Source of the DNA: Balanoglossus misakiensis
Lineage: Eukaryota > Animalia > Hemichordata
DNA: 64,000 nucleotides
Assembly: GCA_040954595.2 (NCBI GenBank)
Contig: CM082579.2
Span: forward strand, 8,235,625 to 8,299,624
Direction of reading: 5' to 3'
Part shown: positions 3,053-44,803 of the stretch, piece after piece
Layout: every line of letters starts with the position of its first letter
How positions within the stretch are numbered: position 1 is the stretch's first letter
The notes under the pieces: generated by a model
Databases searched by the model: none
What the model was told of the DNA's origin: nothing
The model's input: only the letters and a program-made list of their open reading frames with translations
Made by a program: the position numbers and the translations under genes

Positions 3053-6000
3053 CTATAGATATATACAGACCAATTGAATTACGAGGCCCATCATTGTGCA
3101 GAATAGGCCCATGGGAAACGAAGGAGATGAACTGGCAGAGTCCGATGTGAAAGTGAAATGGCCGAGGACGGCGTAGTGGTTCGATAAATCGGTGATTGTC
3201 TTGGTTTCATCGCACTGGTAGGGGTATTCGTGACCGGCAAAGAACTGCACATCTTCCAGACAGATGGTGAAGGGTTCATCGGCCACGTACTTGATGGCTT
3301 CCTGCGTGGCTGTCTCGGGAAGGAGGTGCTCGTGACTGTAGAGGGCGTAGTCGATCCACGAGTCCGTCCCGTTGCTCGGCGCTATGATGTCGTTGTTGTC
3401 CTTGTCGGAGGTGCAGTTGTGGGGCCCGACGATAGGGGGCGTGGTCGCCCGCAGGGTGTCCAACAGGGCCTGCAGCTCGTCGTGGCGCTCGTAGTAGTCT
3501 GTGTTCAGGTCGCCGGCGTAGATGACCGGCTCGCTCTCGGGGATGTCCTGCTTCAGCATCAGTTCGTGCATCTCCGCCGCTTGTTCTTCTCGCACGTCGC
3601 TCCCGCCGTTGTTCCTCTGGCCGGCCTGCAGGTGGGTTCCGAGGACGTGGTAGACCACCGTGCGTCCGTCCACCGTCTTCTCCACGCCGGCGTACATCGC
3701 GCCCTTTCCCGCCCACATGTCGCCCGACCCGGACACGAAGCTCTCGTACACCTTGCCCTCCCACTTCAGCATCGGCCAGCGGGAAGAGATGAAGACGCCG
3801 CCGTTTTCTGGCTGTGGCAGAATCGGCGTGTCCGCCCCAACCGTGTCCGTGTGGTGCGCGAAGCCGTAGTGATCCAGGATCTGCCTGAACGACGCCCCAG
3901 AGTCGTGGAAACAGCCGCCCATGAACGCTTCATTGAAGACGATGGCGTCGATGTCGCCGTGCCTGTTGAACACCTCGGCGAGCATCCTACATGTGCGCTC
4001 GCGCTGTCCGCACTGATAGTACAGATACCTCAGCTCCCAGATGTTGTACACCAGGACCTTGAAGGTGTGGGCTGGTGTTGGGGTCCAGACGCCGAGTTCA
4101 GGTACAGTACACAGAACATTTTGACCGGTTTGCGTCTTGAAATGGCAAACGTCCCAGATTTCATAGTCAGTAGAACAGGCGTATTCCAAGCCAAACATGT
4201 CGCAGTATTCAGGGGTCAAGTCACATTCGGATGTGGCCCTGCCTGTAGAAATATAATCATCGGTACATGTATATGTATACGTACGTACGTATGAACTATT
4301 TCTTGCATGTTTCAATAAGTTGTAGGCCTAAGTGTAGTTTCTGGGGAATCATGTGCATATCAGTAATTATCCGTTAGCTTGAGACTCGGGGGCTGAATTT
4401 ACGTTGGCTGTACTATGACGGTTGAAGACAGCTACTTACCGAGCCAAACACGTGGTATGTCGTCACGACAGTTCTCTGAAAAAAATGATTACAAATTTCA
4501 GTAAGTTATAAATAAGTATTAGATATTTGGTAGACATACAAAGATAAACCAACAGATATACATGTATAGCGGAAGGATAGATTTACGTACGAAATCTTAA
4601 TTCTTTAGTGCAAACTGCGCATTTTATTAAAGTGACTAACCCGGCAATGGTGGCGGCGAAGGGTTGAGAATTGGGGCCGTTGCTTCCGAGAAATCAAATC
4701 TGCCAAGCACTGCATAATGGTCTGAAAGATCTGTGATGTTCCACGACTCCACACACGCGTTTTCATAGGGGTAGGTGTGTCGACGTGCAGGAAGAGTACT
4801 TCTCATGCAAACCTCGAAAGGTTCATCGACGTATTTGATTGACTCCTGACTAACATTGTTCGGTATCAGGTGCTGGTCGCTGTATATGACGTAATCGATC
4901 CACTTGGACCAGCTGGTGTCGTTTGGATGGATGACGTCATTGTTCTGGTTGTCGTCTGTGATGTTGAGTGGTCCCACAATGGGCGGCATTTCGGCTTCTA
5001 AGATCTGGAGAATCTGGTCCCACTGGTCGGGGGACGTGTACATGTCGGTGTTCAAGTCCCCGCCATAAATGACAGGCTCGTCCGCGGGTATGTTTTGTTT
5101 CTTCATCAAAGTGTGCATCTCTTTGGCTTGGAGGGCGCGCTGCTCCGCGTATCGGTCACCCTCGTGCGCCTGGAGGTGAGTACCCAGGATGTGGTAGTGT
5201 CTGGTTTGGCTGTCGACGGTCTTCTCGATTTTGGCGTATGACGCGCCCTTTGACATCAAACTGTCCGGGGACGGCTCGGTTGTGTGCACGTATATCCATT
5301 CGTCTTCCGCCACTATCGGCCACCGGGAGGAGAGAAAGACTCCGCCATTTTCGGGTCTCCTGTACATGTCCCTGGTGCCGTTGGCTAGTAGATCGGTGTG
5401 GTAGGAGAATCCGTACTGATTGAGCATCTGGCGCAGCGATATGCCGTCATCCGGGAAGCAGCCGCCCATGAAGACCTCGTTCCAAATGATCGCGTCGACA
5501 TCGCCGTGGAGCTCGAATATCTTCTGCGGGATTCTGCAGGTGCGTTCCCGTTGGCCACTCTGGGCGTACAAGTACCTCAGTTCCCAGGTGTTGTACGCCA
5601 TCACTTTCAGTGTTGTCGCCGGTGAGGGCGGCGGTAGCTGCATGTCCGGCGAGGCACAGAGGACGTTCCTCCGCCCGGGTCCCGTTGCCCTGTAGCAGTC
5701 GTCACCTTCGACATAGTCTGCCGTGCAGACAAACTCTAGTCCGAACATAGCGCAGTATTCTTCTGTCAGATCGCACTCGGACGTCGCATTGCCTGGCGCG
5801 ACATAAAACAAAACAAACACGTGAGGTACTTTTGGTAAACCAGGGCGTCATCTTTGGCATTTGAAAGAATGCACATGCTGTTATTGGTTGAGACACGTGT
5901 AGTGAACGCGAACGCGACACGAAATCAACTTTGTTGCATAGTACAAGTAACACGGCAAGGAACATCATGATGACACCAATATCAGACACACACATGATAT

Positions 6001-6612
6001 AAGCATTTATAGCATACTGCCTCCAATGAAACTTACCTAACCACACCTGCGGGCGATCATCTGTACATTCATCAGCTGAGATTTCTGGCAAGAGAGCATA
6101 CAAAATATGCACATGGTAGTGTTTGGAATTATCTACATGATGCGTGTCACATTCCCCATCTATTGTGTTAAAAATAATACACAGCCGCAGTGTAACGCAA
6201 TTGGCTTACACACGAAATTAGAATGATGACCAATATTGGCCTGAATTGGCCAGGACCGTACTTTTATGTACATGTACCTGGAATTGGAGTTTGTAAAGGA
6301 TGTGTGAACTATTCAATGCATACGTACCCTTTTCGTGTTCGGCTCTCCGACTGCAAGTTATCATTTTTAGATGACTGGCACAGTTTTAACGCCCTTTGAC
6401 TCAGTGAACTGACGTCTACAATGCCATACAAACATGTAATGTTCTCACTTCCCTGGTTCCCGTAGAGTACCAAACATTTCTATAGTGTAGCAATCTGGTC
6501 ATTCGTCGTGGTTTACTGTTTTGAACGATGGAAAACAGAGTGCACACCACTCACCTCTAAAAATATGCAAAACAACCAACAGACACACCGAAATCACGCG
6601 ATGGCACATCAT
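3053..6612 (-). CDS. Gene A: tandem two-domain bacterial-type sphingomyelinase C-like (EEP) protein, signal peptide + GPI-like tail, ~827 aa
   Basis: Exons: 6612-6555 (MMCHRVISVCLLVVLHIFR), 6084-6037 (EISADECTDDRPQVWLG), 5792-4641 (domain), 4475-4440 (ENCRDDIPRVWLG), 4242-3053 (domain + MGLFCTMMGLVIQLVCIYL*). All introns are phase 1 GT-AG; total 2484 nt. Motifs YN.WEL, NE.F, ENGGVF.SSRWP, GTHLQA, GDLN, WIDY, S(D/N)HY. Minus-strand AATAAA at 2804-2809. Confidence 0.85.
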
Positions 6613-7465
6613 GATGATGCAAAAACAGAACGCAGTCAACTCGCCTCCAGTGTGCAGTTATAGTTGTGGGGGAATTCTGGGACATCAGTAGGTCTTCAGA
6701 AGAATGCGCTGCACTTTGTGACAGCGCAGTGCACCGTGCCATCGTGTGAGGTGTTCGGGTGTTTGACCTGGTTTCAATCTGCGTTGTTCTTTAACCGGAT
6801 TACCTACAGATTATCTGTGCTCATTCGATGGACTTCGTGCTTTTCTTTTCAAAATATCAGCGCCAGTGGAGCAAGAGGGCGGACTGCGGCAATCGTGAGT
6901 TCATCATGATAAATATTTGTTGTGGCAGCAATGATTATACAGCGCTACAAAACAGTAATTGGTGGTACACGTTCATTTCATCATCAAACTTTTATTTCGG
7001 CTGGGCCTGACCCATGCCTCAGTTAGCAAAACATACACGCGAAGTAAAAAATGTTCGATCTCTACAAAGCTCTGCAGGTGTAAGAAGTCTGGAGCACTAC
7101 TTACTTCATTTTTCAAAGATCGGAAACTGCCCTTCAAAACAAGTATTTTTTTAATTCTCATCTTGATAATACGTACATTTCAATGAGACAAATGTCATTT
7201 TACAAGGGACCATGTCACTACATTCACCTAGATCCAACAAGGTTGCTTATTCATTACTAGCTGAGCACGTTCCATTTACGGTAAATACATGGGGATATTT
7301 TCGATACCCTCGAACCTCAGAACATCGAGAAAGACGGTTAATATCATAGCTATGCTATACAACATGGGGGTGATTGTCTGAGTAGTGAACCGATGATGGA
7401 ATCACCGATTTTATTTTTACAAGATATATGCAGCATGTACCTAGTCCTTCAAAGTTATGCTTTAT

Positions 7466-10400
7466 CTACGTAAGCAAAAGTGCGAGGGCGAATACCACAA
7501 CGATGCCGACGACGATCACGTGTTTGACGGGCGCGAGATTTAAAGCTGACGATGTTTGGTCGAGGAAGTTGAAGATGCCGAGAACCGCGTAGTGGTCGGA
7601 CAAATCAGTGATGGTCTTCGTGACGTTGCATTGGTAGGGATACTTGTAGCCACCGAGGAGGTGGACTAAATCCATGCAGACGGTGATCGGTTCGGCTGAC
7701 AGATACTTGACGGCTTCCTGGGTGACCGTGACCGGGAGCGCGTGCACGTGGCTGTAGAGGGCGTAGTCGAGCCACTTGGAGGTGGCATTGCTCGGGGCCA
7801 GGATGTCGTTGTCCTGGTAGTCGGTCGTGTATTTGATGGACCCGGCCACGGGGGGAGTTGTCGCGTTCAGAATATCCAGCAAAATCTCGAGTTCGTCGTA
7901 TCTCGTGTAGTAGTCCACGTTGATGTCTCCCGCGTAGACGACTGGTTCGTGCTTCGGGATTCCCTGCTTCAACATGAGTTCGCCCATCTGGGTGACCTGC
8001 TCCTGCCTGACCGTCCGACTCTGGTCCGTGTCGCCGGCCTGGAGGTGCGTCCCGAGCACGTGGTACACGGCCGCGGTGCCGTCCACGGTCTTCTCGATGC
8101 GGGCGTACATGGCCCCCTTGGCCGACAGCATGTCCGCAGAGCCGAAGACGTAGCTGTCGAACACCGTCTCCTCCCACCCGAGGATCGGCCACCGCGACGA
8201 TATGAAGACCCCGCCGTTCTCCGGGTGGGGGAGTATCGGCGTGTCCTCGCCCACGGTGCCGGTGTGGTGCACAAACCCGTTGTACTCCAGTATCTGCCTG
8301 AAGGACGCGCCGTGCTCGGGAAAGCAACCTCCCATGAACGCCTCGTTGAACACAATGACGTCAACGTCGCCGTGTTCGGCGAAGACTTCCGTCAACACTC
8401 TGCAAGTGCGCTCACGTTGCCCGCTCTGGTAGAACACATATTTCATCTCCCAGACATTGTACGCCAAGACTTTGAAAGTTTTGGCCGGGGTTGGGGCCCA
8501 AGTGCTGAATGTAGGAACCGAACATAGTACGTTGACACCGGTCCTGGTCTTGAAATAACAGACATCCCAGATTTTATACGGGGCGGAGCATGCGTACTCT
8601 AATCCGAATATATCACAGTAATCCGGCGTCAAATCGCATTCTGGAGTAGCTCTCCCTGTAAAAGGGGAAAATAGACACTTTAATAGATAATGACGATAAC
8701 GCAAATACAGTTTTCTTCAGACAAGCGAATAATCACCATGAACATTATGCGTCTACCTGTTTCTTTCCTGTCTCACTCGATAAAAAAACTGCCAAAGGGA
8801 AAAGCGACCGCTGATGCGGGTGTTCCCTGTATTGAAAGCAACGGTTAAAGTCGCTCACTTTTGACATTATTTTGCTTTAGTCTCCAACGATAAAATATTT
8901 GTTTTTCTGCACTTAGAATGTAACTCCTTACCCAGCCACACACGAGGTCGGTCAATGTCGCATTCCTCTACAAAGAAAATAAAAGAGAAAAACGACATCA
9001 AAAAGTATAGACAAAGATTATTTGAACGTAAATGAACCGAGTGAAACACATGGCAACCGACCAGACGAGTATGCGTTAACCTATCTGAATTACATAAAAC
9101 AAAACAACAGCAAACACCCAAAATGACTCTGTTGCATTTGCCAAGAAAGCTAATCTGTTTATATCTTTAACGATGGCCGATCAGTTTTATGTCAAGAAAG
9201 GTGAAGAAAATGAATGAGTTTAATACCAGGTAAAGGTGACGGCGAAGGGTTGAGTATTGGATCTGTCGCTTCCGAGAAATCAAATCTGCCAAGCACTGCA
9301 TAATGGTCTGAAAGATCTGTGATGTTCCACGACTCCACACACGCGTTTTCATAGGGGTAGGTGTGTCGACGTGCAGGAAAAGTACTTCTCATGCAAACCT
9401 CGAAAGGATCATCGACGTATTTGATTGACTCCTGACTAACATTGTTCGGTGTCAGGTGCTGGTCGCTGTATATGACGTAATCGATCCACTTGGACCAGCT
9501 GGTGTCGTTTGGATGGATGACGTCATTGTTCTGGTTGTCGTCCGTGATGTTGAGTGGTCCCACAATCGGCGGCATTTCGGCTTCTAAGATCTGGAGAATC
9601 TGGTCCCACTGGTCGGGGGACGTGTACATGTCGGTGTTCAAGTCCCCGCCATAGATGACAGGCTCGTCCGCGGGTATGTTTTGTTTCTTCATCAAAGTGT
9701 GCATCTCTTTGGCTTGGAGGGCGCGCTGCTCCGCGTATCGGTCACCCTCGTGCGCTTGGAGGTGAGTACCCAGGATGTGGTAGTGTCTGGTTTGGCTGTC
9801 GACTGTCTTCTCGATTTTGGCGTATGACGCGCCTCTTGCGGACAGGTGGTCTGGGGACGGTCGGGTGGTGTGCTTGTAAATCCATTCGTCTTCCTCGACG
9901 ATCGGCCATCGCGAGGAAATGTAGATGCCGCCATTTTCTGGTTGCTTGTACATGTCCCTGGTGCTGTTTCCCACCAAATTTGTGTGGTGGGCGAAACCGT
10001 ACTGGTCGAGGATATGGCGCATCGACAGACCGTCGTCGGGGAAACAGCCGCCCATGAAGATCTCGTTCCAAATGACGGCATCAACATCCCCGTGCCAATC
10101 GAATATCCTCTGAGGAATCCGACAGGTGCGTTCGCGCTGGCCCTGTTGGGCGTACAGGTACCTCAGCTCCCAGATGTTGTACGCTATGACCTTCAACGTT
10201 GTCGCCGGCGAGGGCGGCCAGATTTGTTTCGCCGGAGAGGCACAGAGGACGTTCTTCCGTTCCGGCCCAGAGCTTCTGTAGCATTCGTCACCTTCTACGT
10301 AGTCTGCCATACAGACGAATTCCAGTCCAAACATGGCGTAGTGCTCTTCTGTAAGGTCGCACTCAGATGTCGCATGCCCTGTCAAATGAAATGAAATGAA

Positions 10401-10880
10401 AAAAAAATACATGTCAGGGATAAAGACAGGTGGCGATATATGTACAGATGAGGGAATTAATCACATATACATGTACCTATTCAACTGGTGTTATTGCTCG
10501 ACGTAATCCTTGTTCGATTTTATGATATCTTTTTACTTTCACTTGTCGGGTGAAATTAAACGGGAAAAGAATTAAACAAAGAAATCGACAGACAGACAGA
10601 CAGTGAGACATATAAACAGACAGACAAATAAATAAACCATCGGGGTACTTACCCAACCAGACTTGCGGCCTGTCGTCACCACACTCACCAGCAGAGATTT
10701 CTGAAGTATAGTAACGAAAATGAGATTATACACCCGCAAAATGCAGATAGATTGTTAACCTACTAAATGCAGTGAAGATGGCGTTCACTTACCGGCAACC
10801 ATAAGCATACCAAGCACCAGAACAAGCGCCAACTTTACAGCAAACATTTTGGTGGTCAGGGAAGTTTCACATGTCGCCAT
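7466..10880 (-). CDS. Gene B: tandem two-domain sphingomyelinase C-like protein, ~837 aa
   Basis: Exons: 10880-10793 (MATCETSLTTKMFAVKLALVLVLGMLMVA), 10700-10653, 10378-9227, 8967-8932, 8655-7466 (ends VIVVGIVVVFALALLLT*); total 2514 nt. The four internal/terminal exon sizes equal those of gene A (48/1152/36/1190). Full EEP motifs in both domains. AATAAA at 7410-7415 (minus). Confidence 0.85.
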
Positions 10881-12278: not shown

Positions 12279-15200
12279 TCATGGCATACACTGTGTAAAG
12301 AGAAGCGCGACGATTATCAGAAGAAGAGGTGAAAATAAAACATTGGCAGACGACACTTCTTCGGAAGGGTATTCAAATCGCCCGATAACAGCGTAGTGGT
12401 CGGACAGATCGGTGATAGTTATATTGTTTCCACATCTTTCGTCGTACGGGTACAGATGGCCGATGAACAGTTTGATTCCATCGAAACAGATGTCAAAGGG
12501 TTCGTCGTCGACGTATTTGATCGCCTCCAGCGAAGACGATGTCGGCAGCAGGTGGTCGTAGCTGTAGACGACGTAATCGACCCATTCGCCGGGTATCCAG
12601 CCGCGACTCTCGGCGCAATCTTGCGGGTTCCCAGCGTTGAAGTTTATGTCGTTGTAGCAGTTGTCGTAGGTGACGTTGAAGGAGCCCACGACCTCGGGCA
12701 CGGTCGCCCGGAGTGCCTCCAGCATGGTTTCTAGCTGTTCCGGGCGGGAGTGCGCGTCGTTGTTCAGGTCGCCGCCGTAGAGAACTGCTTCGCCCTTCGT
12801 GATGTTCTGTCTCAGCATCAGCTGGTGCATCTCTTTGGTTTGGTTCAGTCTGGCCTCGTCTCCGCCGCGGTCGTGGTCACCCGACTGCATGTGGGTTCCC
12901 AGCACGTGGTAGTTCCTCGTCTTGCCGTCCACCGACTTCTCGATCTCCGCGTAGACAGCCCCCTTCGCTGCCATGGCGTCGTCGGAAGGGACAATCTTGC
13001 TTTCGTAGACGGTCTCATCCCACCTGACTATCGGCCACCGCGACGCGATGAAGACGCCGCCATTTTCCGGTGGCCACCGTTGATTTTCGCCGACGGTCCC
13101 CGTGTAATACCGAAAGTCATAGTACTCCAGCATCTGGCGGAAAGAAGCCCCGTCCATGGGGAAACAGCCGCCCGCGAAAGTTTCGTCAAAGATGATCGCA
13201 TCAATGTCGCCGTGCCTTCTGAAGGCCTCGGGGAGGATTCTGCACGTGCGCTCGTGCTGGCCATTCTGCCAGTACATATCCCGAAGTTCGTACACATTGT
13301 ACGCCAGTAACTTGAACGTGGTTGCCGGAGTCGGCTCGGAAAGCGTGACTTCCGGTACGGCGCACAAAGCATTCTGGCCCGGGAAGACGTAGCAGTAGTC
13401 CCAAGTGTTGTAGCGAGCGCTGCAGACGTATTCCAATCCGAACATCGCGCAATGGTCGGGTGTCAAGTCGCACTCTTTGGTTGCGTATCCTGTTGGTAAA
13501 GAAATACCTACTTTAGTATAACTCACGGCAAGGAACGGCCCGAATACAGACCATTCTTCGAAACAATAAACTAATAAACTTCCCAGAGAAAGTTGTTCTG
13601 TACTGTCTGAAAACGAGCTCAAATACCACGATTGCATAAAATAAAAATGTCAAGAAAACTTACCGAGCCAAACCTGTGGTCTGGTATCGGTACACTCAGC
13701 TACAGAGAAAAAGAAAGGAATTTTCATTAAATAATAGTATGCATTACAACATTATGAACATAAACGACATGGATACTATGCTAAAACTATCGCAGTTCGG
13801 ACAGTTTTGACAGTGTCAGTCGATTAACTTGGCCCTACCGTGTTGTGATTTGTTTAGTTCGTGTACGTACACGTTCCTCTTTTCTCCAGTTGTACTGTAT
13901 ATTGGAACTTACCGGGAATTGGTTCTTGAGTTGGGTTCGGCACGGGATCAAATGGGCTGCTGAAGTCGAAAACGCCCATGACTGCGTAGTGATCGGACAG
14001 ATCCGTGATGTTCCAGGAATCTCGACAACGTTCTTGGTAAGGGTACTGGTGCTTGCCAAGCTCTATGGGTACGGTTATTTCAATCGGTCCGATCTTAATT
14101 GGTTCGTCGCTTTGTGCAATTGGGAAAGACTGCATACACGGGGCAAATGGCTCCGACTCCACGAACTTGATGGCTTCCTGCGTTGCGTCATTGGGCATTT
14201 GGTGTTGATTGCTGTAAATGACGTAATCGATCCACTTGCCACCAGTTCCTGGATCCTTTTAGTCTCGGTTACCCAGACGCCTTTGCTTCTTCCGATGCTC
14301 TCCAGAAAAAGGGTCTGGGGAAATGCTATTGAAAGCTTTGTAAAACAAAATGGCCGATGTCAGGATTTTGATCATCGCCTGATTGGCTGAGCTGTCAGTA
14401 TGACCCGGGTCACTGACTCTCGACAATGTGTGATTATTTGTCGTATCTTCATATCAAGAGACCGGTACTTGTTGGTTGATGCGAAAGGCAAAAGGCGTCC
14501 TCTGTTAGCATTGTTGGAGAAATTATATGAAATATCTTTGGTAGACGATTGTCAAAACTATTGCAGTGACCCGGGTCATACAGACAGCTCAGCCAATCAG
14601 GCGATGATCAAAATCCTGACATCGGCCATTTTGTTTTACAAAGCTTTCAATAGCATTTCCCCAGACCCTTTTTCTGGAGAGCATCGGAAGAAGCAAAGGC
14701 GTCTGGGTAACCGAGACTAGGATCCTTTCTGATGTCGTTGTTTTCGTAGTCGTATGTGACGTTGAGGTCGCCGATGATTTCAGGCATATTGGCTTCAAGG
14801 ACAAGAAGCGTTTGATCCCATCGGCCATCGGGATCATCCAGCCTGGTGTTCAGGTCGCCGGCATAGATAACAGGCTCCGTGGACGGTATATTCTGTTCTT
14901 CCATGAGTGTGTGCATCTCTTTGCACTGAGCAACTCTGACACCATCTCCCTGGCCGCCGTCACCCTGACCAGACTGTAAGTGAGTTCCCAGAACGTGGTA
15001 GATTCTTTTCGTAGAACCGTCATCTTTCTCGATCTTGGCGTACATGGCGCCCTTGTTTGACAAGGCATCAATCGATGGCCGAGCGGAATTGTCATAGATG
15101 GTTTGTGCTTCTTTGAGAATAGGCCAGCGAGAAGCGATGAAGACGCCTCCATTTTCAATCGCGGTGACGTCAGGCGGGGCGATCGGTGGGAAGGAGCCTT

Positions 15201-22731: not shown

Positions 22732-22844
22732 TAGTCTCGGTTACCCAGAGCCCTCCGCTTTTTCCGTTGGGCACTCCAGAAAGAGGGTCCCTCTTTCTGG
22801 AGTGCCCAACGGAAGAAGCAGGGGGGTCTGGGTAACCGAGACTA
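22732..22844. mobile_element. 113-bp palindromic MITE of the same terminal family as 14260-14719
   Basis: Same termini TAGTCTCGGTTACCCAGA / TCTGGGTAACCGAGACTA; nearly the whole element is a hairpin. Flanked by GGAAAATCC at 22723-22731 and 22847-22855, with 2 extra nt (TA) on the right. Confidence 0.88.
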
Positions 22845-23331: not shown

Positions 23332-29431
<6,100 letters not shown>

Positions 29432-30954: not shown

Positions 30955-33900
30955 CTAGTGCATGACGTGCGTCAAGACGACGGAAATGATCAGGAGAATT
31001 GTAGACGCGCACGTGATACACGAAGAGGATACGTCTTCAGACGGATATTCGAATCGCCCTAGGACCGCGTAATGGTCGGCGAGATCGGTGATGGTTTGGT
31101 TTCGTCTGCACCTGCTGTCGTACGGGTACAGGTGTCCACTGAAGACCCTGATGCCGTCGTAGCAGATGGTGAAGGGATCGTCGTCGGCGTATTTGACCGA
31201 CTCCTGCGATGCAGACGTCGGCAGCAGGTGCGCGTAGCTGTAGAGGACGTAATCGATCCAGGAGCCCGGCAGCCAATCGCGGTTTTCTGCGCAGCCTTGC
31301 GGGTCGTCGCCCTCGTAGTGCATGTCGTTGTAGCACTTGTCGCTGGTGACGTTGATGGAGCCGATGATCTCGGGCAGAGTCGATTCGAGTGCCAGCAGCA
31401 TGGCTTCTAGATTTTCCGGCTCGTCGTATATGTTGGTATTCAGGTCACCCCCGTAGATGACCGCCTCGCCCTTCGGGACGTCCTGCCTCAGCATCAGCTC
31501 GTGCATTTCTATGGTTTGGTTCAGTCTGGCCTCGTCCCCGCCGCGGCTCGTGTCGCCGGCCTGTAGGTGAGTTCCCAGTACGTGGTATTTTCTCGTTTTG
31601 CCGTCGACCGACTTTTCTATCTCCGCGTAGGTAGACCCCTTCGCTGCCATGGCGTCGTCGGAAGGGGCTATCTTGCTTTCGTAGACGGTTTCGTCCCATC
31701 GGACAATCGGCCATCTTGAGGCGATGAAGACGCCGCCATTTTCCAGCGGCCACAGAAGATCTTCGCCAACGGTTCCGGTGTAATACTTGAAGCCATAGTA
31801 TTCCATAATCTGGCGGAAAGATGCGCCGTCGCGGGCGAAACATCCTCCCATGAAGGCTTCGTTGAAGATGATGGCGTCGAGGTCGCCGTGGCGAGTGAAA
31901 ATCTCAGGGAGGATTCTGCACGTGCGCTCGCTCTGACCACTCTGGTAGTACATGTAGCGGAGCTCGTACACGTTGTACGCCAACACTTTGAAGGTGGTCG
32001 CCGGTGTTGGATCGGGTAGCGTAATCTCTGGTACGGCACACAGAACGTTCTGACCGGGATAGACGTAGCAGTAGTCCCACGTATTATAGCTAGCACTGCA
32101 GACGTATTCAAGTCCAAACATAGCGCAGTAATCTTCTGTTAAATCACACTCATTGGTCGTATATCCTATGAACAGAAAAATTGACGTTTTCGTACGTTTA
32201 TTACAAATAGCTTTCATTACAATCACGGACTCTCTCGGACAATGTTCATCGCTTCTCCTGACCACAACGATTACATTTCTTTATTGATATATGACAGGAA
32301 ATAATAGGAATAGTTTTATCAAATTTAATTCGATTATTGAAAATGTACGTAGATATTGTAGGATTTTACACTGTTAATTACTCGTTAGGAAATAATAATT
32401 GCTTACCAAGCCAAACTTTAGGTCTGGCATCGTTACACTCAGCTGAAAAAGTAAGAAGAAGAACATGAGGATATTAATTTGGGTTTCGAACTATTGTACA
32501 GGCTTTAAAATGTAACTTATGGTGCTTAAGTTGTTATATCCCAAATTCATATCTCGTCCATCCCGATAGAGGTCACTACGCAAAAATGAACTTAGCATTA
32601 TATTTCAGCACATTGGTAATTTTTGGTTTCTATAATGTATTAGTGATTTCTAACAAGATACAATTACACGGATTGTTATTTTTCATATTGGTCGCGACTT
32701 ACCAGGAATTGGTTCTTGGGTTGGGTTTGGCACGGGGTCAATTGTGCTACTGAAATCGAAAACGCCCAGCACTGCGTAGTGATCGGCTAAATCCGTGATG
32801 TTCCAGGAGTCTCGACACCCTTCTTGGTAAGCGTAATAGTGCTCGCCTAATTTGATGGGCGGGTTAATCGGTCCGACAGGCTCATCGGACCGCGATATCG
32901 GAACGGCAGACATGCAAGGCTCGAAAGGCTCGGAGGCCACGTACTTGATCGACTCCTGGGTGGCGCTGCTCGGCATGGAGTGTTGGTTGCTGTACAGGAC
33001 GTAGTCGATCCACTTTCCTCCCGTGCCCGGCGTGCTTCTGACGTCATTGTTTTCGTAGTCGTACGTCACATTCAAGTCTCCCACGATATCAGGCAGGTTG
33101 GACTCAAGGACCAGCAGCATTTGGTCCATTCGGCCGTTGGGGTCGTCGAGTGCAGTGTTCAGGTCACCGGCGAAGATGACGGGCTCGTTCGCGGGTATGT
33201 TCTGCTCCTTCATGAGGGTGTGCATCTCTTTGGCCTGCGCCGGCCTGACCTCCTCTCCCCTCTCGCCGGCGCTGGCTTGCAGATGGGTACCTAGGACGTG
33301 ATAAACTCTCGTCTGGGAATCAACTGTCTTTTCTATCTTCACGTACACGGCGCCCTTGTTGGAAAGATTATCGGGAGATGGTTCGACCGCGTGCTCGTAC
33401 ACAGTCTCGGCTTCGGCCAGTATTGGCCAACGGGACGCGATGAAGACGCCGCCATTTTCGAAAGCAGTGATATTCAGAGACGGATTTGGTGGCATTGGAA
33501 GGAGGGACTGATCTTCCCCGACCGTCTTCGTGTAGTGACTGAAGCCGTACTGAGTCAGCATGTCTCGGAGAGAAATGCCGTCAAACGGGAAACAGCCGCC
33601 CATGAAAACTTCGTTGAAAACGATGACGTCGACATCACCATGACGATCGAATAGCACCTGTGGAATTCGACAAGTTCTCTCATATTGCCCCTTCTGGTAG
33701 TAAGAGTACCGCAGCTCCCAGACGTTGTAAGCCAAGACTTTCAGCGTCGTGGCCGGGGTGGGGTCGGCCAAGGTTACATTCGGGGATGCGCAGATCACGT
33801 TGACCCCCTTACCTAAACATTCGTGCCTATTACCATACTCTTCCTCGCACAGATAGTCCAACCCGAACAAGGAACAGTAAGAAGGGTCAAGATCACATTC

Positions 33901-35161
33901 TGAAGTTGCGTCACCTGAAAATGAATAGAATAAATTTATGAATGAATGAATGAATGAATGAATGAATGAATGAATGAATGAATGAATGAATGAATGAATG
34001 AATACCCTGTTCGCAAACGTTAACTTGTACGTACGTTGAAAAAAATGCGCTAAAACTTGTGGTATACTTGGCGGGAGGCCATTGCTTATACACTCACCTA
34101 ATTTAACTTGAGGTCTTGGGTCATCAGGACATGTCGTACCTATAAATTAAACACAATTGAATATGATGTGCAGTGTATAAGATGTAACTCCTGTTGCTAC
34201 CGACATCTTGTATTCTCTGATTACATTTGAAGGATTTCAAAGTCTCTTACACCTTTCAGGTATCAGTTGTGAGGAGAATACGTGATTGACATAAAAATGC
34301 CATTCGTAGAAATCGCATAACTTTTTTGGATAACATACTTTGCAACAGTGTGACATTGCTTCATTTTGCGCTCGCGACGTTGGCAAGAAAATAATATCGT
34401 GACATTCATTTTCATTCGACAGAATAGCTTACGTTTAGTTTCTATTCTTTTATATTATCGACAGGTAGACGTGTGCAATCTGCTGGACGTTACATAAACC
34501 TCAAGGGAGATATGATGAGAGTGTTGCCGACTATTGTACGTTGACCCTAGCCAGATTTTAGCATGGTCTGATCCGACTGTACCTCCTATCAGTAAGGGCA
34601 AGGTGCGATATACATTGAAGCTATATAGTGTCTATGTAGTGTCGTGAATATGAAGTTTTAAAGTTTAATTGGTACTCTACAAAAACGCTGTAAATCGGGT
34701 GGGCACTATTGGAGATATCGCCCACATTGACCCACTTTAAAAGAGCATCGTCTGTGTTTAACAACTGATGGTGTCCTGTGATATGGATGAGAATGCACAA
34801 CTTCAATTAAACTGTCTTTCTCCCACATAGTACGCTAACTGATTTTTTGTTCGAACCCAGAGACTTTCACAGTACAAAAAACGTATTCATGGCTTACAAA
34901 ACGCGCTGGAGTCAAAATAAGTCAGGTCTGCTGAGTCGATATAAAGATCGCTTCTTATATCCCAGGTACACCATCAGTAGCAAGCTGCGTCTCTTACACT
35001 CAAACTTCCCGTACCCCTTTCTTACAGTTACCGGTTTCCTCAGTGTAGCAACCCCAATGGCATGGGACAGACGGTTCAGGAAAATACTCACCTCCTAATG
35101 ACAGGACTTGGAAACAAACCAAAGCGAAGAGCAGAGCTGATGAAGTCCTTGAGAGCGACAT
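30955..35161 (-). CDS. Gene F: tandem two-domain sphingomyelinase C-like protein, ~856 aa
   Basis: Exons: 35161-35092 (MSLSRTSSALLFALVCFQVLSLG), 34139-34098 (GTTCPDDPRPQVKLG), 33914-32703, 32442-32407, 32165-30955 (ends TILLIISVVLTHVMH*); total 2571 nt. Its 70/42-nt first exons match gene E. Confidence 0.85.
33938..34003. repeat. (TGAA)n microsatellite, intronic
   Basis: Visible directly. Confidence 0.93.
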
Positions 35162-36574: not shown

Positions 36575-39500
36575 TTACTCATATACTGTTCCCGCATATA
36601 CAATTGCCACAGCAACGGACAATATAAACGCAACAAAGGACGACGTTGTCTTTGCAGACTTCGATACGTCCCCGTCGACACTATACTGAAAACGTCCGAT
36701 GACAGCATAGTGCTCGGCCAAGTCGGTGATGGTTCGCGGCGAATTGCAATCGTCCTCGTATGGATAAATGTGTCCCCTCAGCAATTTGAGGCGATCCAGA
36801 CACACATCGAACGAGTCGTCGACGAACTTGACGGATTCCTGCGTTGCAGTTATTGGCTTCTGGTGGGCGTGGCTGTAGACCAGGTAGTCAACCCAAGCAC
36901 CGGGCAACCAGTTGAGCTCTTTAGCGCAGGCTTCTGGGTCGGCGGCGCCTTCGTAGGTGATGTCGTTGTAGCAGTCGTCTGTGGTGACGTTGATGTTTCC
37001 TTCGCGGAGAGGGAGGTGCGCCTCCAGGGCCTCGAGCATGGCGTCCAGTTGGTCTCTCTTGTCGTATATGTCGTTGTTGAAGTTCCCCCCGTAGACAACC
37101 GCCTCGCTGGCGGGGATGTCCTGTTCAATCATCAGCTGGTGCATTTCTTTGGTCTGGTTCAGCCTGGCCTCGTCGCCGCCGCGGGCATCGTCACCCGCGT
37201 GCAGATGAGTGCCCAGCACGTGGTACTTTCTTGTCATCCCGCTGACCGATTTCTGAATCTCCGCGTAGACCGCTCCCCTGGCCGCGAAGGCATCGTCGGA
37301 GGGGGTCACCTTGCTCTCGTAGACCGTCTCGGCCCAGCTGAGTATGGGCCACCGAGAGGCGACGAAGACCCCGCCGCTCTCCGGCGGCAGCAGGGTTCTC
37401 TCTCCGACCGTGCCGGTGAAATAGTTAAAGCCGTAGTAATCCATGATTTGACGGAACGAGGCGCCGTCGCCCGCGAAACAACCGCCCATGAAGGCTTCGT
37501 TGAAAATAATTGCGTCGAGGTCCCCATGTCTCCTGAAGATCTCAGGCAGAATTCGGCACGTGCGTTCGTGTTGTCCGTTTTGATAGTAGAGGTATCGCAG
37601 TTCCCAGACGTCGTACGTTAATATCTTGAAGGTAGACGCCGGTGTCGGGTCGGACAGCGCAATCTCCGGTACTGAACACAGCACGTTCTCGCCGGAGAAA
37701 ACGTAGCAGCGGTCTACCGTGTCGTAGCGTGCGCTGCAAATGTACTCCAGTCCAAACATCTCACAGTGTTCCGGCGTCAGGTCACACTCGTTTGTTGCAT
37801 AACCTGAGAGAAATCAAAGAACAAAAATGTCTGATATATTTCTATAATTGCAGGATGAAAGTTATGCTTATTACATGATGACATAATTAACGGTAATAAT
37901 TCAATCATACGCATAAGAATATTTACCAACATAGAACGGTAAAAACAGTGGTAAACATTTAAAACATTAAAAAATACCTTAATTATACTTACCGAGCCAT
38001 ACTTGAGGCCTTTTGTTTATCGTACACTCCTCTGTGAAGAGAGGCATTAAAGTCATTGTGTTAGAAAGAATCGCATTCTTAGAAATGTCTATAATATGCA
38101 GTCTGTCACGAAATATCCTATTCATTTAGATCTTTGCTCGGTCGTCTATTAATGTGTGAGAAATTCCCAAGGTAACTTTGCAGTGGTTTTAATAACTTAT
38201 ATTTTGTAAATGTCAACTTTTTTTTCATGGGGTTTGTTGTTCTTTGGTGTCACTTCTGCGTCTTCACTGATAAATTTCTACCTACCTGGAATGGACGGAA
38301 GGGTCGGCAGCGGTAATGGATCGCTGATGGGATCGCTGAAGTCGAATACACCCAACACCGCATAGTGGTCGGATAGATCAGTCAGGTTCCAGGAGTCTCG
38401 ACAGCGTTCCTGGTAGGCGTAGTAGTGCTCGCCGAGCTGAATGGGAATCGGTATCGTGATGGGACCTATCTGGATGGGCTCTTCCCTGGAGGATATCGGT
38501 ATGGCTGCCATGCACGGCTCGAACGGTTCTGCAGCGACGTACTTGATCGACTCCTGGCTGGCGGCGTTGGGCATCAGGTGCTGGTTGCTGTAGATGACGT
38601 AATCGAGCCACGTGCCTCCCGGCGCGGGGTCGCGGTGGACGTCGTTGTCCTCGTAGTCGTACGTGTAGTTCAGCCGGCCGACGACGCCGGGCATGCTGGC
38701 CTGCAGGACCTCCAGCATCTGGTCCCACCTGCCGTACGCGTCGTACAGATCGGTGTTCAAGTCGCCGGCATAGATGACAGGCTCGCCGGTGGGGATGTTT
38801 TGTTCCTCCATCAGCAGACGCATCTCCTGCGCTTGCAGGGCGCGCACCTCATCTCCCACGAAGTTGGCCGCCTCTCTGAACCCAGCCTGGAGGTGAGTCC
38901 CCAGGATGTGGTACACCCTCTTCTCAGAGCCGTCGTCTTTCTCAATTTTCGCGTAGACGGCCCCCTTGTTCGCCAGAGCGTCCGGGGACGGCCGCACGGC
39001 GTTGTCGTACACTTTCTCGGCTTCTGCGAGAATGGGCCAGCGGGAGGCGATGAAGACGCCGCCGTTCTCAATGGCCGTGAAGTCCGGGGGAAAGTTCGGA
39101 GGAAGCGCGATGTCTTCGGGGTCCAGCGGCAGGAGGGACGTGTCCTCCCCGACCGTCTTGGTGAAGTAGCCGAAACCGTACTGTTTCAAAACATCGCGGA
39201 GGGACAGGCCATTGGCGGCGAAGCAGCCACCCATGAAGACTTCGTTGAACACGATCACGTCCACATCGCCGTGAGCGTCAAAAATCGCCTGCGGAATCCG
39301 ACAGGTGCGTTCGTACTGCCCCCTCTGGTAGTAGACGTAGCTGAGCTCCCAGACGTTGTACGCCAGGACTTTCAGCGTGGTTGCCGGTGTCGCTGGCGGC
39401 AGCGTCCGGTCCGGGGATGCACACAGCACGTTGTGGTCGGTTACGCCAACGCCGCCACAGCTGTGGCTGTTGGCATAGGCTTGTGAGCACACGTAGTCCA

Positions 39501-42500
39501 AGCCAAACATGGCGCAGTAAGAAGCATCGAGGTTGCACTCGGATGTCGCATCTCCTGTAAAATGCAACAGAGACAATTAACAGGAAAACCGACATAATCG
39601 ACAATTTAATGGTAACTGACGAATTGAATAAAAAAATTGTCATGTATTTCTTAAAATATTGTGCCTTACCCAACCATACTTGTGGTCTGGAGTCTTCACA
39701 AGGGATGTCTGGAAAATAGAAATACAAAATAAATCACCAAACGTAAAATACACAAATCATAACATCTTGCATCTGTGGCCAAAAGTGACACAAGCATTCT
39801 TGCACATATAAAATTCAGTGTAATAAAGTAACCCTACTACTATACTGAAACTTTATCTCGAATCCAAAAATCAAAACATTCTACGAATGCTCGTGTAGGG
39901 GTATTGGGGCCCGATACTCTGTTCCATGCCTACACTTCTGAACGTCTACATTGTCGCTTGTCAAATTATAGGTAAATGCAAAACCACGGTCGACTGACCG
40001 TGGCCAATCATACCAAAATCGAAACGACCAAGAACGGCGTAATGGTCCGATAGATCGCTGATCTCTCTCGATGAGTTACACCTGCCATCGTACGGATAGA
40101 TGTGACCACCAAAGAGTTTGATGTCGTCCATGCACACGGCGAACGGGACATCACCGACGTATTTGACCGACTCTTGGCTGGCGTACACCGGCTGGAGGTG
40201 GGAGTAGCTGTAGAGGACATAGTCTATCCAGGAGCCGGTCAGCCAGTTGCGATCCCGGGCGCATCCCACCGGGTCATCGCCCTCGTAGTTGATGTCGTTG
40301 TAGCACTTGTCGCTGGTGACGTTGATGCTCCCTTCCGTCGGCGGAAGATTGGCCTCCAGAGAGTCTAGCATCTCCTGCAAGTATTCGGGCTTGGTGTAGA
40401 AGTCGTTGTTGAGGTCTCCCCCGTAGATGACCGCCTCGTTGCTGGGGATGTTCTGGTCCAGCATCAGCTGGTGCATCTCTTTGGTCTGGTTCACCCTGGC
40501 CTCGTTCCCGCCGCGGTCGCTGTCGCCCGCCTGCAGGTGAGTGCCCAGGACGTGGTATTTCCTGGTCAGCCCGCCGACCGACTTGTGGATCTCGGCGTAG
40601 ATCGCTCCCTTGGCCGCCATGGCGTCGTCGGACGGGGCGATGACGCTCTCGTACACGGTCTCGTCCCACCTGACGATGGGCCACCGCGAGGCGACAAAGA
40701 CTCCGCCGTTCTCCGGGGGCAGGACGAGGTTTTCGCCCACAGTTCCCGTGTAGTATTTGAAATCGTAGTACTCCAGAATCTGTCGGAAAGACGCGCCGTC
40801 CTCGGCGAAGCAGCCGCCCATGAAGGCTTCGTTGAAGATGATGGCGTCGAGGTCGCCGTGTCGAGTAAAGATTTCGGGAAGGATTCTGCACGTTCGTTCG
40901 TACTGACCACTTTGGTAGTACAGGTAGCGGAGCTCGTACACGTTGTACGACAGCACCTTGAAGATCGTTGCCGGCGTCGGGTCGGGCAGGGTGACCTCGG
41001 GTACCGCGCATAAAACGTTCTGACCGGTTTTCACGTAGCAGTTGTCCCAGGTGTTGTAGGCAGCGCTGCAGACGTACTCCAATCCGAACATGGCGCAGTG
41101 GTCTCGTGTCAAATCACACTCATCGGTAGCGTACCCTAGGCACAGAAATAGAAAGTAGTCCTATTTTGTCAGTTTCTTTTAGTCTATATTTGAACTTATT
41201 TATTTGCACCTCCAAGATAGATAATCGATATAAACAAATAATTTCACATCCTACTTACCAAGCCATACTTGAGGTCTCTCGTCATTGCACTCCTCTACAT
41301 TCAAAAGACAGAAGAAAAAACAATCAATTATCAACCTGAAGGTCAAAACGTTACATGCAATTTCTTGTGGTTATAGTCTCTCAAAGTTATAGGTAACCTG
41401 TCCCCCTGTTCAGGCCATTTAATTTATGCCTGCACATCATTAAAACTTTGCCTTTGTAAATAATTGTGTTTGCAATTAAATGTGTTAAATGACAACCTGG
41501 GTAATACAGTTCTATACGTGGATTGATTACCTGGAATGGGTGCTGGAGTAGGATTGGGAACAGGTTCGATGGGTTTACTGAAATCAAAGACGCCAAGTAC
41601 CGCATAGTGGTCTGATAGGTCGGTCACGTTCCAAGAATCTAGACATTTCGCGTCATAAGGGTAGCGGTAGCTGCCGAACTCTATAGGGATTGGCAGCTCG
41701 ATGGGACCGATTTTAATCGGTTCATCGCGTTGTGATATCGGCGAGGCTCGCATGCACGGCACAAACGGCTCCGCTGAGACGTACTTCACCGACTCCAGGC
41801 TGGCGTCGTTTGGCATCAGGTGCTGGTTGCTGTAGACGACGTAATCGATCCACGTCCCTCCAGTGCCCGGGTCCGCTCTGACGTCATTGTTCTCGTAGTC
41901 GAAGGTCACGTTCAGCTCGCCTATAATTTCGGGCATGTTGGCTTCTAGGACGTCTAGCATCTGCTCCCAGCGACCGTTCGTGCCGTACAGGTTGGTGTTC
42001 AGGTCGCCGGCATAAACGACAGGTTCGTCCATTGGTATGTTCTGTTCCTCCATGAACAGCTGCATTTCTCGCGCTTGCAGTGTGCGTATCTCATCGCCCC
42101 GTCCGTCGTCCAATCCAGCCTGAAGATGCGTGCCAAAGACGTGGTACACTTTCTTGAGAGAACCGTCGTCTTTTTCTATTTTTGCGTAGGCAACGCCCTT
42201 GTTGGACACCACACTCACGAGGTGGTTGTCGAACACCTTCTCTGCCTCGGCGAGGATTGGCCAACGAGAGGCGATGAAAATGCCGCCGTTCTCTACACCG
42301 GAGACGTCGGGTCCCGCCGTGGGCGGCAGGTTCTCCGGGTCCGGAGGGAGTGGGAGGGGGAGGAGGGATTTGTCTTCGCCGACGGTTTTTGTGAAGTGCC
42401 CGAAGCCGTACTGCGCCAGCATGTCGCGGAGCGATATGCCGTCAAACGGGAAACAGCCGCCCATGAACACTTCGTTGAAAACGATGACGTCCACGTCGGC

Positions 42501-44803
42501 GTGCTGATCGAAGATTTTCTGGGGGATTCGGCACGTTCGCTCGTGCTGTCCGCTCTGGTAGTACGTGTATCTCAGCTCCCAGACGTTGTAGGCCAGGACT
42601 TTCAAGGTCGTCGCCGAGGTTGGAGCTGGCAGGTCCTTATTCGGCGATGCGCATAAGACGTTATGGTCGCCCTCTCCCCGACACGAATCGCCGAGTCTGT
42701 AATCCGAAGTGCAGACGAAATCTAACCCGAAGAAGTCGCAATACGAACTGTCAACGGCACATTCAGATGTCGCCTCCGCTGAATGGGAAATGGGTATACA
42801 GAAAGTTACATAAAGATATGTTTATATATGCATCCATACCCATGGTACGAGTAACGTTCTCCCAGTTTGTGTACAGAAGGAGACAAATTCTCTCTTTTAG
42901 TAAACAGAGCAATTTTGAAATGAGAGCTGCTTATCACCTATATCAAGCATTGCACTTACCTAGCCATACTTGCGGTCGAGAATCACTGCACTGTGCGTCT
43001 GTAAAATAATATATGTAAGTCAATGACTTAATCATTGTTGATATTTGAATGAAAAAAAAAACAAAACATGCCCGTGCGGATGGGTGGCAGAGGGCCCTGG
43101 AGACATTGTATTGGGTGTAGACGTACTTTATTCTGCCAGAAAACGCCCTCTGACAAATAAGCGCCTTTGTATGTAGCGCAAGTTTTTCTTCTGAAAAGGC
43201 TAGTGTTGTGCCCAAGTTTGTCGTTGTCGCTGAGGGCACACTTGTACAGAGGGATGTACTAGTCCAGTAGTCAGTGCGCAAACCACGGTCATCTTTGTGG
43301 CATGGCCGTGTGCAAGCAAATAAACCCGATGGGTACGTTCATTGTGTTGGCTTCGGGGTTTACTGTTGCCGTGGTTTCATTGACGTCACGCAGTATGTTA
43401 CTCTATCCGACTTGTTCAATATTTTGTTCAATATGAAAACAAAATAATTTTAACGTCCCCGTGTTAGCTGTAAATATATCTCGAGGGTCTCGCCGATCTC
43501 TATTGTCGCATATATGGGCAACCAAAATTTAAAGGCAAACCTAGTAGACGAAGAAGACAATGCAATCAAAATTTTACGAGGTCGACGCCACTTCAAAAAC
43601 GATGCTCACACTGATAACCTGGGAGAGGCCCATCCCCTGTTGTGACAAGGCGTTATCACTATGAAATATGCCGTTGTACCATTTTTTGTTTACCTAATCA
43701 GGTCAATGTACAACAAAAATAACTGTGACGTTTTACATTTTTGTTTTTCGCGACTTCGATGTTCTGAAATTTAGCGTTCGTTCCGAGTTGAACATTAATC
43801 TGTTGCCATTTCTCACGCATTAATCCAAACTTTTGTCTTGTACGTCCAAATATCCAATAGATGGGTAAGACACCTCATTGGTCAATAGATAACCCGCCTT
43901 TATACCGGTACAAACTATTCTCGTGCGCCACTTGCCGCATTGGGCCAAACGTACCTTATGTCGGTGAGGGCGTAAGGTCTTTTTGAAAACTGAAGAAAAA
44001 TCTTATTTAAATGACAGACTTAAAACTCGGCAAAGGTGTGTCCTATGTATTGTTTCGTAGGACAAGATACACATCATACGCTCTTAACTTCAAGTAGTCA
44101 ACAAACTCATGTAAGCCGCACGTGACTGAACCGTGGAATGTTGAAAGAAATGCTCTATCTTGTCTTCACAAATAGACACAGCACTGATAACAAATCCAAT
44201 AAATTAGTATGAATCGACACCTCTACCTCGGAGATGCAGATTGCTGAACCAGAGTTTTACTAAAATGGCCTGTCGTTTGATTTAGGGGGCGTTGCCGACT
44301 TGTTTTACGCTGACTTTTGCGCTGCGTTTCAGAATCGTCGACTTCTAGAATCGTGACACGTCCAAAACTCTTCTTCACGACCATCAAACATGCGATCGAA
44401 AATATTCCAATAAGTGTATCCAAGTCTAAAATTCGATAGCAACAAAAGGCACGCAGTGGCATAAACTTTGTGTTTGTTTCTCACCAGAAAACAAAACAGG
44501 CTTCCATGGCTACTCGTGTTAACATGGGTTAGGAATTGTTAGATTTTTCCCTAATACCGGATAGAATGGCAAAAAAGGCTTAAACATATGTCTTAGATGA
44601 TAAAGTCAAACTATTTCGCTCGCTAAACTAGCGCAATTTAGAATTTGCTGGTGTCTCTAGGTTTGTAACGATGTAAATAAGAAGAGGGACTCGGATGTTA
44701 CCATGGAAATTGGCCATAATCCGAATGGTCATCACCTACCACAGAAAACTGGTCCGAGGACACACAGGGACGCCAAGAGAAGCAAATCCGATAACGTCCA
44801 CAT
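36575..44803 (-). CDS. Gene G: four-domain (I-II-I-II) sphingomyelinase C-like protein, ~1694 aa, last domain catalytically altered
   Basis: Exons: 44803-44740 (MWTLSDLLLLASLCVLGPVFC), 42998-42960, 42778-41531, 41294-41259, 41135-40014 (alternative donor at 39999), 39708-39670, 39554-38286, 38031-37993, 37803-36575 (ends FVAFILSVAVAIVYAGTVYE*); total 5085 nt. No signal-peptide exon was seen in the ~250 bp between 39709 and 39960, and the second domain lacks the usual long hydrophobic tail. Confidence 0.72.

Follow-up and report, generated by a model that had tools for sequence, protein, structure and literature searches.

The window analysed here, a 64-kb stretch of Balanoglossus misakiensis DNA, carries a cluster of seven spliced genes on the minus strand, one of which encodes four sphingomyelinase C (SMase C)-type domains and six of which encode two (one of the latter is broken). 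A six-frame profile scan of the whole window detected 17 matching frames, which correspond to 16 domains, all on the minus strand; no further frames were found. The profile TIGR03395 matched 16 of the 17 domain pieces with E-values of 1e-21 to 1e-36, which indicates that the domains are not chance similarities. Every gene of the cluster begins with a signal exon, ends with a GPI-type tail and has a micro-exon in front of each domain. An earlier note on this DNA had proposed 16 same-strand paralogous domains, embedded in spliced genes between positions 3053 and 44803. All of this was borne out: six of the seven gene models are intact reading frames in which every intron is GT-AG, and the two positions are exactly the stop codon of the last gene and the ATG of the first.

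The first gene, G1 (36575..44803, minus strand), encodes a 1694-aa protein with four domains in the order B-A-B-A. Its exons (44803-44740, signal; 42998-42960; 42778-41531; 41294-41259; 41135-40014; 39708-39670; 39554-38286; 38031-37993; 37803-36575, GPI-type tail) are joined across GT-AG introns without an internal stop, and the product is 75% identical (1687 columns) to the four-domain Ptychodera flava protein P0114. Three two-domain genes on the same strand are related to P. flava P0115: G2 (30955..35161; exons 35161-35092, 34139-34098, 33914-32703, 32442-32407 and 32165-30955; 856 aa, 74% identity), G3 (23332..29431; exons 29431-29362, 26696-26655, 26428-25214, 24936-24901 and 24545-23332; 858 aa, 73%) and G4 (17571..22453; exons 22453-22384, 21351-21316, 20864-19605, 19107-19072 and 18781-17571; 870 aa, 73%). 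The remaining two-domain genes, also on the minus strand, are G5 (12279..17003; exons 17003-16931, 16122-16087, 15641-13913, 13699-13664 and 13489-12279), whose first domain is broken within the third exon, G6 (7466..10847; exons 10847-10793, 10700-10653, 10378-9227, 8967-8932 and 8655-7466; 826 aa, 78% to P0116) and G7 (3053..6612; exons 6612-6555, 6084-6037, 5792-4641, 4475-4440 and 4242-3053; 827 aa, 82% to P0117). G6 has a further in-frame ATG at 10880. A small intron-rich gene for a secreted, DOMON-like protein, read from the sequence at 667..2310 (plus strand, end approximate), converges on the cluster and lies outside the family; its exon 1 matches Pfam DOMON weakly (E 0.049).

The 11th domain (the first of G5) is split by a 460-bp palindromic foldback (MITE-like) insertion (14260..14719, unstranded) with a 9-bp target duplication, whose 156-nt arms are 99% complementary and enclose a 148-nt spacer. 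The G5 frame ends at a stop at about 14649, within the insertion, and no acceptor-donor pair was seen near the insertion ends. The 5' part of G5 and the first domain of G4 share 94% identity. We infer that local amplification of the cluster is still turning over. The claim that each domain occupies a single intronless exon applies to the catalytic cores of 15 domains; the core of the 11th is interrupted, and the cysteine-rich N-terminal module of each domain starts in a micro-exon of 36-48 nt; taken as a whole, the unit (module plus core) therefore contains an intron.

The cluster genes are spliced host genes under purifying selection. The 15 intact domains share 47-88% identity in pairwise comparisons (mean 59%), dN/dS was 0.08-0.26 in all 13 pairs (with dS saturated in several), and database proteins of P. 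flava are end-to-end counterparts with 72-82% identity. Long open frames with a high GC3 (0.56-0.80) might suggest bacterial contamination or an assembly artefact. This explanation, to which we give practically no weight, is refuted by the spliceosomal introns, the microsatellites, the spliced neighbour gene, the paralogues diverged by 12-53% and the location of the orthologues on a P. flava chromosome of 50 Mb.

The domains are confidently predicted to adopt the SMase C variant of the DNase I/EEP fold. The best structural match of the domain 14 model (pLDDT 92) was Bacillus SMase 2uyr (Z 35.9, rmsd 1.9, 278 aligned positions), with a Z score about 9 above that of human nSMase1 (SMPD2, 8j2f; Z 27.0) and about 11 above that of TDP2; nSMase2 (SMPD3, 5uvg) reached 22.9. 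Profile comparison gave E-values of 6e-48 for bacterial SMase C versus 2e-6 and 0.004 for the two human enzymes. These results support the bacterial affinity proposed in the earlier note: the domains resemble bacterial SMase C much more closely than they do SMPD2 or SMPD3, with which they share the EEP fold and catalytic residues at 17-18% identity. SMPD2 and SMPD3 are membrane enzymes and are not known to have signal peptides. A model of the two-domain P0116, built with 6 sequences, was too poor for domain packing (pLDDT 64, pTM 0.54).

The likeness to bacterial SMase C (B. cereus 2ddr/2uyr, S. aureus beta-toxin 3i5v, L. ivanovii SmcL 1zwx and S. griseocarneus 7cne; TIGR03395) extends to the predicted fold (Z 34-36, rmsd about 2), the catalytic centre and predicted secretion. 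However, the acorn-worm domains are only about 30% identical to these enzymes, and 16 of the 17 pieces score 76-125 bits against TIGR03395 (no match was obtained with the short 3' fragment of domain 11), all below the curated cut-off of 248.2 bits, which four of four actinobacterial control proteins passed (300-339 bits). Moreover, the acorn-worm proteins add the cysteine-rich N-terminal module and extra cysteines, and their chains have two or four domains, a GPI-type tail and introns. Of the motif order described previously, the PDNLSNKG element is present in just 2 of the 15 aligned domains.

All eight residues of the catalytic centre (N16, E53, H151, D195, N197, D253, D295 and H296, Bacillus numbering) are found in 13 of the 15 intact domains. 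The exceptions are domain 4, the last of G1, with three active-site changes (N16D, D195N and D295E), and domain 16, the second of G7, with D295N, a change also present in P. flava P0117 and Saccoglossus P0119. The catalytic roles of N16, E53, H151, N197 and H296 in bacterial SMase are described in PMC9710629, according to which the edge metal site varies among bacterial enzymes too. At this site F55 and E99 are retained, and N57 is replaced by Gly and D100 by Asn (Ser in domain 4). Both strands of the aromatic, membrane-binding beta-hairpin (W284, F285) were modelled, and in place of a direct Trp-Phe apex they carry a longer, cysteine-flanked loop with hydrophobic residues.

With the edge site half lost and the hairpin replaced, the substrate may differ from that of SMase C. 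The main substrate could be another phosphodiester (ceramide phosphoethanolamine/aminoethylphosphonate, a glycerophospholipid or phosphocholine-capped glycans), the origin of the genes being the same. The sub-threshold scores of all domains in the SMase C equivalog profile are in line with this, as is a neighbouring EEP family which, according to PMC10704324, releases phosphocholine from GlcNAc; furthermore, no characterised member of the bacterial sister clade described below was found in the material searched. The top structural and profile matches were nevertheless all sphingomyelinases, in a comparison set without GlcNAc-PDase sequences, and we regard a different main substrate as rather unlikely.

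Hydropathy and inspection by eye indicated a signal peptide, a small-residue spacer and a terminal hydrophobic stretch in all seven genes (tail hydropathy 2.2-3.4 over 15 residues); the chains also have 5-9 N-glycosylation sequons. It is the final part of the last domain exon, rather than a separate anchoring exon as proposed earlier, that provides the hydrophobic anchor. Judged from these features, the chain would enter the ER, form disulfides and become N-glycosylated, and the tail would hold it on the outer cell surface. In each intact domain, Glu53 would bind Mg2+, and His151 and His296 would cut the phosphocholine-type head off sphingomyelin or a related sphingophospholipid, thereby freeing ceramide. 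We consider the cutting of membrane lipids at the cell surface the likely activity of these enzymes; as to their role, our committed guess is that in the gut and pharynx they digest, at the surface, membrane lipid of dietary or microbial origin.

The family is not confined to hemichordates. Proteins automatically named "sphingomyelinase C-like" from echinoderms, hemichordates, annelids, flatworms and Priapulus belong to it (35-69% identity per single domain) and share the module and motifs with the cluster domains; the non-deuterostome members come from Owenia, Dimorphilus, Macrostomum, Cichlidogyrus and Priapulus. Saccoglossus APU50761.1, "sphingomyelin phosphodiesterase-like protein 170", is part of the same animal family. 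Chordate, arthropod, nematode, mollusc, cnidarian and sponge names were absent from the named matches, which are a minority of all matches. Among 12 long matches, the 7 two-domain forms all came from Ptychodera, Glandiceps and Saccoglossus, the members outside acorn worms being single-domain; the doubling and the cluster appear to be acorn-worm-specific traits. The hydrophobic tail is common to many ambulacrarian members and is absent from those of annelids, flatworms and the priapulid. The literature searches yielded no functional or evolutionary study of this animal family, which databases label automatically.

The presence of the family in deuterostomes, spiralians and a priapulid shows that its acquisition was not special to the acorn-worm lineage, contrary to the earlier proposal. 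Simakov et al. (2015; PMC4729200) made the same kind of claim for the same animals, using as a criterion for deuterostome genes of putative microbial origin the lack of homologues in non-deuterostome animals, which the SMase C-type family does have; "sphingomyelin" was not found in the main text or two spreadsheets of that paper (the supplementary PDF lay outside the search).

The closest bacterial relatives (35-40% identity) are EEP proteins of Mariprofundus and other Zetaproteobacteria, Ca. Tectomicrobia, Nitrospinota and Gammaproteobacteria, which form a sister clade. They have one catalytic domain, no anchor and, as judged by eye, hydrophobic leaders, so a secretion signal need not have been a eukaryotic addition, as the earlier note had assumed. 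A scan of viral contigs (37 pattern matches) gave no relatives, and a plasmid search gave 36 records, all below 60% identity (about 30% among the 10 matches listed).

The sister-bacterial proteins carry the same module and cysteine pattern as the animal ones; in some of them the module is repeated up to five times. A profile based on 13 repeats of the module from non-animal sequences, a region excluded from the trees, matched 10 of 10 domains of G1-G4 and 16 of 18 named animal proteins (two of them weakly); the other two lack the module. It matched none of six named oomycete proteins and none of nine neighbours of these, but two of the six begin at the catalytic domain and could not have shown it. 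No Pfam family was assigned to the module in the seven proteins scanned. A cysteine following GQxER is present in 15 of 15 animal, 3 of 3 sister-bacterial and 0 of 6 oomycete proteins. The host intron lies inside the module, and in a genomic relative from the annelid branch the splice acceptor is at the same glycine and in the same phase.

Trees were calculated from 44 and 54 hand-picked rows, without SMPD2, SMPD3 or SMPD5 sequences; five short or split proteins were excluded, and 10 of 128 new representatives were looked up for names (five had one). In the 54-row tree, the animal clade (100/97) joins the Zetaproteobacteria, Tectomicrobia and Gammaproteobacteria (100/97) within a 95/81 clade containing more bacteria, with oomycetes outside; oomycete and eukaryote-looking proteins are included in a larger 100/99 clade. 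The nesting branches of the 44-row tree had support of just 85/86 and 86/77. With 44 rows the AU test did not reject a grouping of the animals with the oomycete group (p 0.087), and with 54 rows it rejected it only marginally (p 0.048), both constrained groups having been picked after viewing a tree. Of the bacterial acquisition proposed earlier, the nesting of animals among bacteria is supported, and the direction of transfer, from bacteria to animals, is probable.

An old eukaryotic gene, inherited vertically with heavy loss, could also have led to this pattern if the sister bacteria acquired it from eukaryotes or if the nesting is a tree artefact. The eukaryotic proteins within the 100/99 clade and the AU values suit such a history, as do the nearest ESM Atlas clusters (Zoopagomycota and Ciliophora, outside the trees) and intron-rich relatives in metagenomes (L140, L143-L145). 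We nevertheless consider it improbable, because the sister group and the branches next outside it are both bacterial, the module and extra cysteine join animals with bacteria and are missing in the oomycete proteins, the catalytic cores in the window are single exons, and the sister genes sit, by eye, among ordinary bacterial genes (ribosomal protein L17-like, G6PDH-like and signal peptidase-like).

The designation "toxin-type" is not supported. Bacillus and Staphylococcus toxins are the best solved-structure matches, which might point to a recent, lineage-specific capture of such a gene as a haemolytic weapon. The low identity to the Bacillus, Staphylococcus and Listeria enzymes, the sub-threshold scores and the position of TIGR03395-passing enzymes outside the animal plus sister clade argue against this; the spread across bilaterians largely refutes it, and a membrane tether would be more in keeping with an enzyme resident at the surface than with a toxin that is released. 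We consider such a capture highly improbable.

The best reading of the data is a transfer from bacteria to animals that predates the bilaterian radiation. We assign a probability of about 0.55 to the view that the seven tandem acorn-worm genes code for phospholipase C enzymes that are secreted, GPI-anchored and metal-dependent and have two or four SMase C-type domains each, and descend from a gene taken from bacteria before the protostome-deuterostome split. This view is based on the observed gene structure, orthology, purifying selection, catalytic residues and tree position, and on the predicted fold. The bacterial gene would have carried the cysteine-rich module, within which an intron was gained in an early bilaterian; the GPI tail would have arisen in one ambulacrarian branch, and the domains would have doubled in acorn worms before local amplification. 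More tentatively, a single transfer of this age may have founded an unrecognised extracellular SMase C-type family that marine worms and echinoderms retained and chordates lost, the acorn-worm members being GPI-tethered two- or four-headed surface lipases with specialised heads, one of which, with the conserved Asp-to-Asn change, would act on another substrate or serve in binding.

The novelty is limited in that databases already name these proteins automatically and tandem amplification is a common event. To our knowledge, few well-supported transfers from bacteria date back as far as the ancestor of bilaterians; in the present case, the bacterial sister group can be named, and an intron marks the domestication. 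The catalytic cores are single exons, and Ptychodera, Saccoglossus and sea urchins are used as laboratory animals, which makes the proposal directly testable. The sphingomyelinases usually credited to animals are acid, alkaline and membrane-bound neutral enzymes, to which an outward-facing, tethered family of bacterial type would add a further kind.

The cluster of sphingomyelinase C (SMase C)-type domains is real. Six-frame translation revealed long minus-strand frames from 3056 to 42821, and a profile scan of all window frames of at least 25 residues gave 17 minus-strand matches and no others. Because domain 11 is split in two pieces, these correspond to 16 domains (numbered from the first gene, G1), which bears out the 16 same-strand paralogues counted in the earlier note. 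Pairwise identity among the 15 intact domains is 47-88% in the alignment. The sole NCBIfam match of 16 of the 17 pieces was the bacterial SMase C family TIGR03395, at 76-125 bits, all below its cut-off of 248 bits.

Odd-numbered domains (type B) carry a C-terminal proline-rich linker followed by a splice donor. Even-numbered ones (type A) finish with a hydrophobic tail and stop codon; the exception is domain 2, which has a splice donor and continues into domain 3. The cluster therefore comprises four domains in G1 (36575..44803) and two in each of G2-G7 (G7, 3053..6612), and contains seven hydrophobic signal exons. A shorter product ending at domain 2's own stop (39961) could also be made. A micro-exon of 36-48 nt, of the form C..D.RPQVWLG, precedes every domain (14 found by pattern search, two by direct reading). 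Six gene models have end-to-end open frames and GT-AG introns, and the frame of G5 (12279..17003) is broken by an inserted palindromic element, accompanied by a 9-bp target duplication. The earlier reading, single intronless exons embedded in spliced genes, holds for the 15 intact catalytic cores, but a cysteine-rich module ahead of each catalytic core begins in the micro-exon, and domain 11 is interrupted.

Compared with Ptychodera flava database proteins, themselves predictions, G1 is 75% identical to a four-domain protein, G2-G4 73-74%, G6 78% and G7 82%. The source organism would be an acorn worm closely related to, though distinct from, that species. The dN/dS ratio is 0.08-0.26 in all 13 pairs, and identical tracts of 96-208 nt in some gene pairs suggest recent duplication or conversion. 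At 22732-22844, about 280 bp upstream of the start of G4 (17571..22453), a short palindrome shows 83-86% similarity to the outermost 55 bases of the arms of the G5 insertion. G3 (23332..29431) carries a tRNA-Ser(TGA) gene (28895-28976) on the opposite (plus) strand of its first intron, and a small spliced, secreted DOMON-like gene (667-2310, plus strand) converges on the cluster. No convincing coding frames of at least 85 aa were found at 44900-64000; a 45-bp tandem repeat lies at 48890-49066.

The bacterial SMase C-type identity proposed earlier is partly upheld, by the predicted fold and catalytic centre. The structure model of domain 14 (pLDDT 92) had a bacterial SMase C as its best match (Z 35.9, rmsd 1.9, 278 residues). 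Human nSMase1 and nSMase2 reached Z 27.0 and 22.9, respectively. The animal-family profile matched Bacillus SMase at E 6e-48 and the two human enzymes at 2e-6 and 0.004. Eight catalytic-centre residues (Bacillus numbering N16, E53, H151, N197, H296 and the aspartates D195, D253 and D295) are complete in 13 of the 15 intact domains. Three of these residues differ in domain 4, though not in its Ptychodera flava counterpart. Domain 16 has D295N in common with the Ptychodera flava protein P0117 and the Saccoglossus protein P0119, so that this change looks old and kept. The roles of N16, E53, H151, N197 and H296 follow PMC9710629. Two of the four residues of the edge metal site are retained. Where bacterial SMase C has an aromatic hairpin, the acorn worm domains have a longer cysteine-flanked loop; five of the seven intact type B domains carry an additional Pro/Ile-rich insert. 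The enzyme is predicted to work like bacterial SMase C, yet fails the TIGR03395 cut-off.

Two trees, both built without SMPD2, SMPD3 and SMPD5, bear on its origin. The 54-row tree, based on catalytic cores only, unites the animal rows in a single clade (100/97), whose sister is a large group of bacterial proteins that share the cysteine-rich module (together 100/97). More bacteria lie next to this branch (95/81), oomycetes and eukaryote-looking rows fall outside, and classic SMase C lies further out. The 44-row tree has a compatible shape with weaker nesting. The horizontal transfer from bacteria put forward earlier is favoured by these groupings, but forcing the animals to join the oomycete group yielded AU p values of 0.087 (44 rows) and 0.048 (54 rows), short of a firm rejection. 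The nearest ESM Atlas clusters, which are not among the tree rows, are fungal and ciliate and would count against bacterial origin. A distinct clade of bacterial-type SMase C-like proteins, marked by a CPCC insert, occurs in oomycetes (P0221-P0229); the proteins P0047 and P0048 group with it. The genomic records L140, L143, L144 and L145 are intron-rich eukaryotic family members, with introns within the catalytic core.

Members of the module-bearing bacterial group are named Ca. Tectomicrobia and Gammaproteobacteria. Among GTDB genomes it occurs in Mariprofundus, another zetaproteobacterium, a Nitrospinota genome and Thioalkalispiraceae, flanked by bacterial genes; the Nitrospinota copy (L003:2890-4054) appears split between two frames. 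A module profile built from 13 non-animal repeats, a region outside the tree columns, matched all 10 domains of G1-G4, as well as 16 of the 18 named animal proteins, and none of six oomycete and nine neighbouring proteins. This distribution lends the animal-bacterial grouping independent support. Since the module starts in the micro-exon, the host intron falls within sequence that the bacterial proteins also have. One genomic fragment grouping with annelid proteins has a splice acceptor at the same glycine and in the same phase; this single record hints that the intron is older than the protostome-deuterostome split. The module (45 residues, cysteine-rich, W.G.AP.C) matched no Pfam family in any protein scanned and is present in up to five copies in bacterial and three in animal proteins (database proteins P0209, P0030 and P0282, genomic records L125 and L126). 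It is an unnamed domain that deserves separate study.

The first search returned 113 proteins, the named matches including Ptychodera, Saccoglossus, all five echinoderm classes and the annelid Dimorphilus. An exhaustive profile search gave at least 150 representatives (128 new); of 10 new ones checked, five were identified, from Macrostomum, Owenia (twice), Priapulus and Cichlidogyrus. The family is therefore present in deuterostomes, spiralians and one ecdysozoan. In the Owenia protein P0121 a Ras-family domain is fused to the enzyme, possibly a gene model merge. Many ambulacrarian members have the hydrophobic tail, which was absent from all seven annelid, flatworm and priapulid proteins checked. 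A search for longer proteins found 12, of which seven, all from acorn worms, had two or four domains.

The family carries the database label 'sphingomyelinase C-like', and one Saccoglossus record is titled 'sphingomyelin phosphodiesterase-like protein 170', so one member has already been looked at by someone. No descriptive paper on the family was found in the literature searched, a scope largely outside subscription journals, nor does it appear in the passages, sections 8 and 21 and two spreadsheets of PMC4729200 that were consulted.

With its signal peptide, 5-9 N-glycosylation sequons, abundant cysteines and C-terminal hydrophobic tail, the product looks like a disulfide-bonded glycoprotein, which would be GPI-tethered outside the cell. 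A Mg2+-dependent phospholipase C activity towards sphingomyelin or a similar lipid is predicted for every intact domain. Vertebrate intestinal alkaline sphingomyelinase is digestive, and by analogy our guess is that these enzymes may serve digestion at the surfaces of gut and pharynx. They represent an old bilaterian family, patchily kept and probably bacterial in origin, whose multi-domain amplified form has so far been found only in acorn worms.
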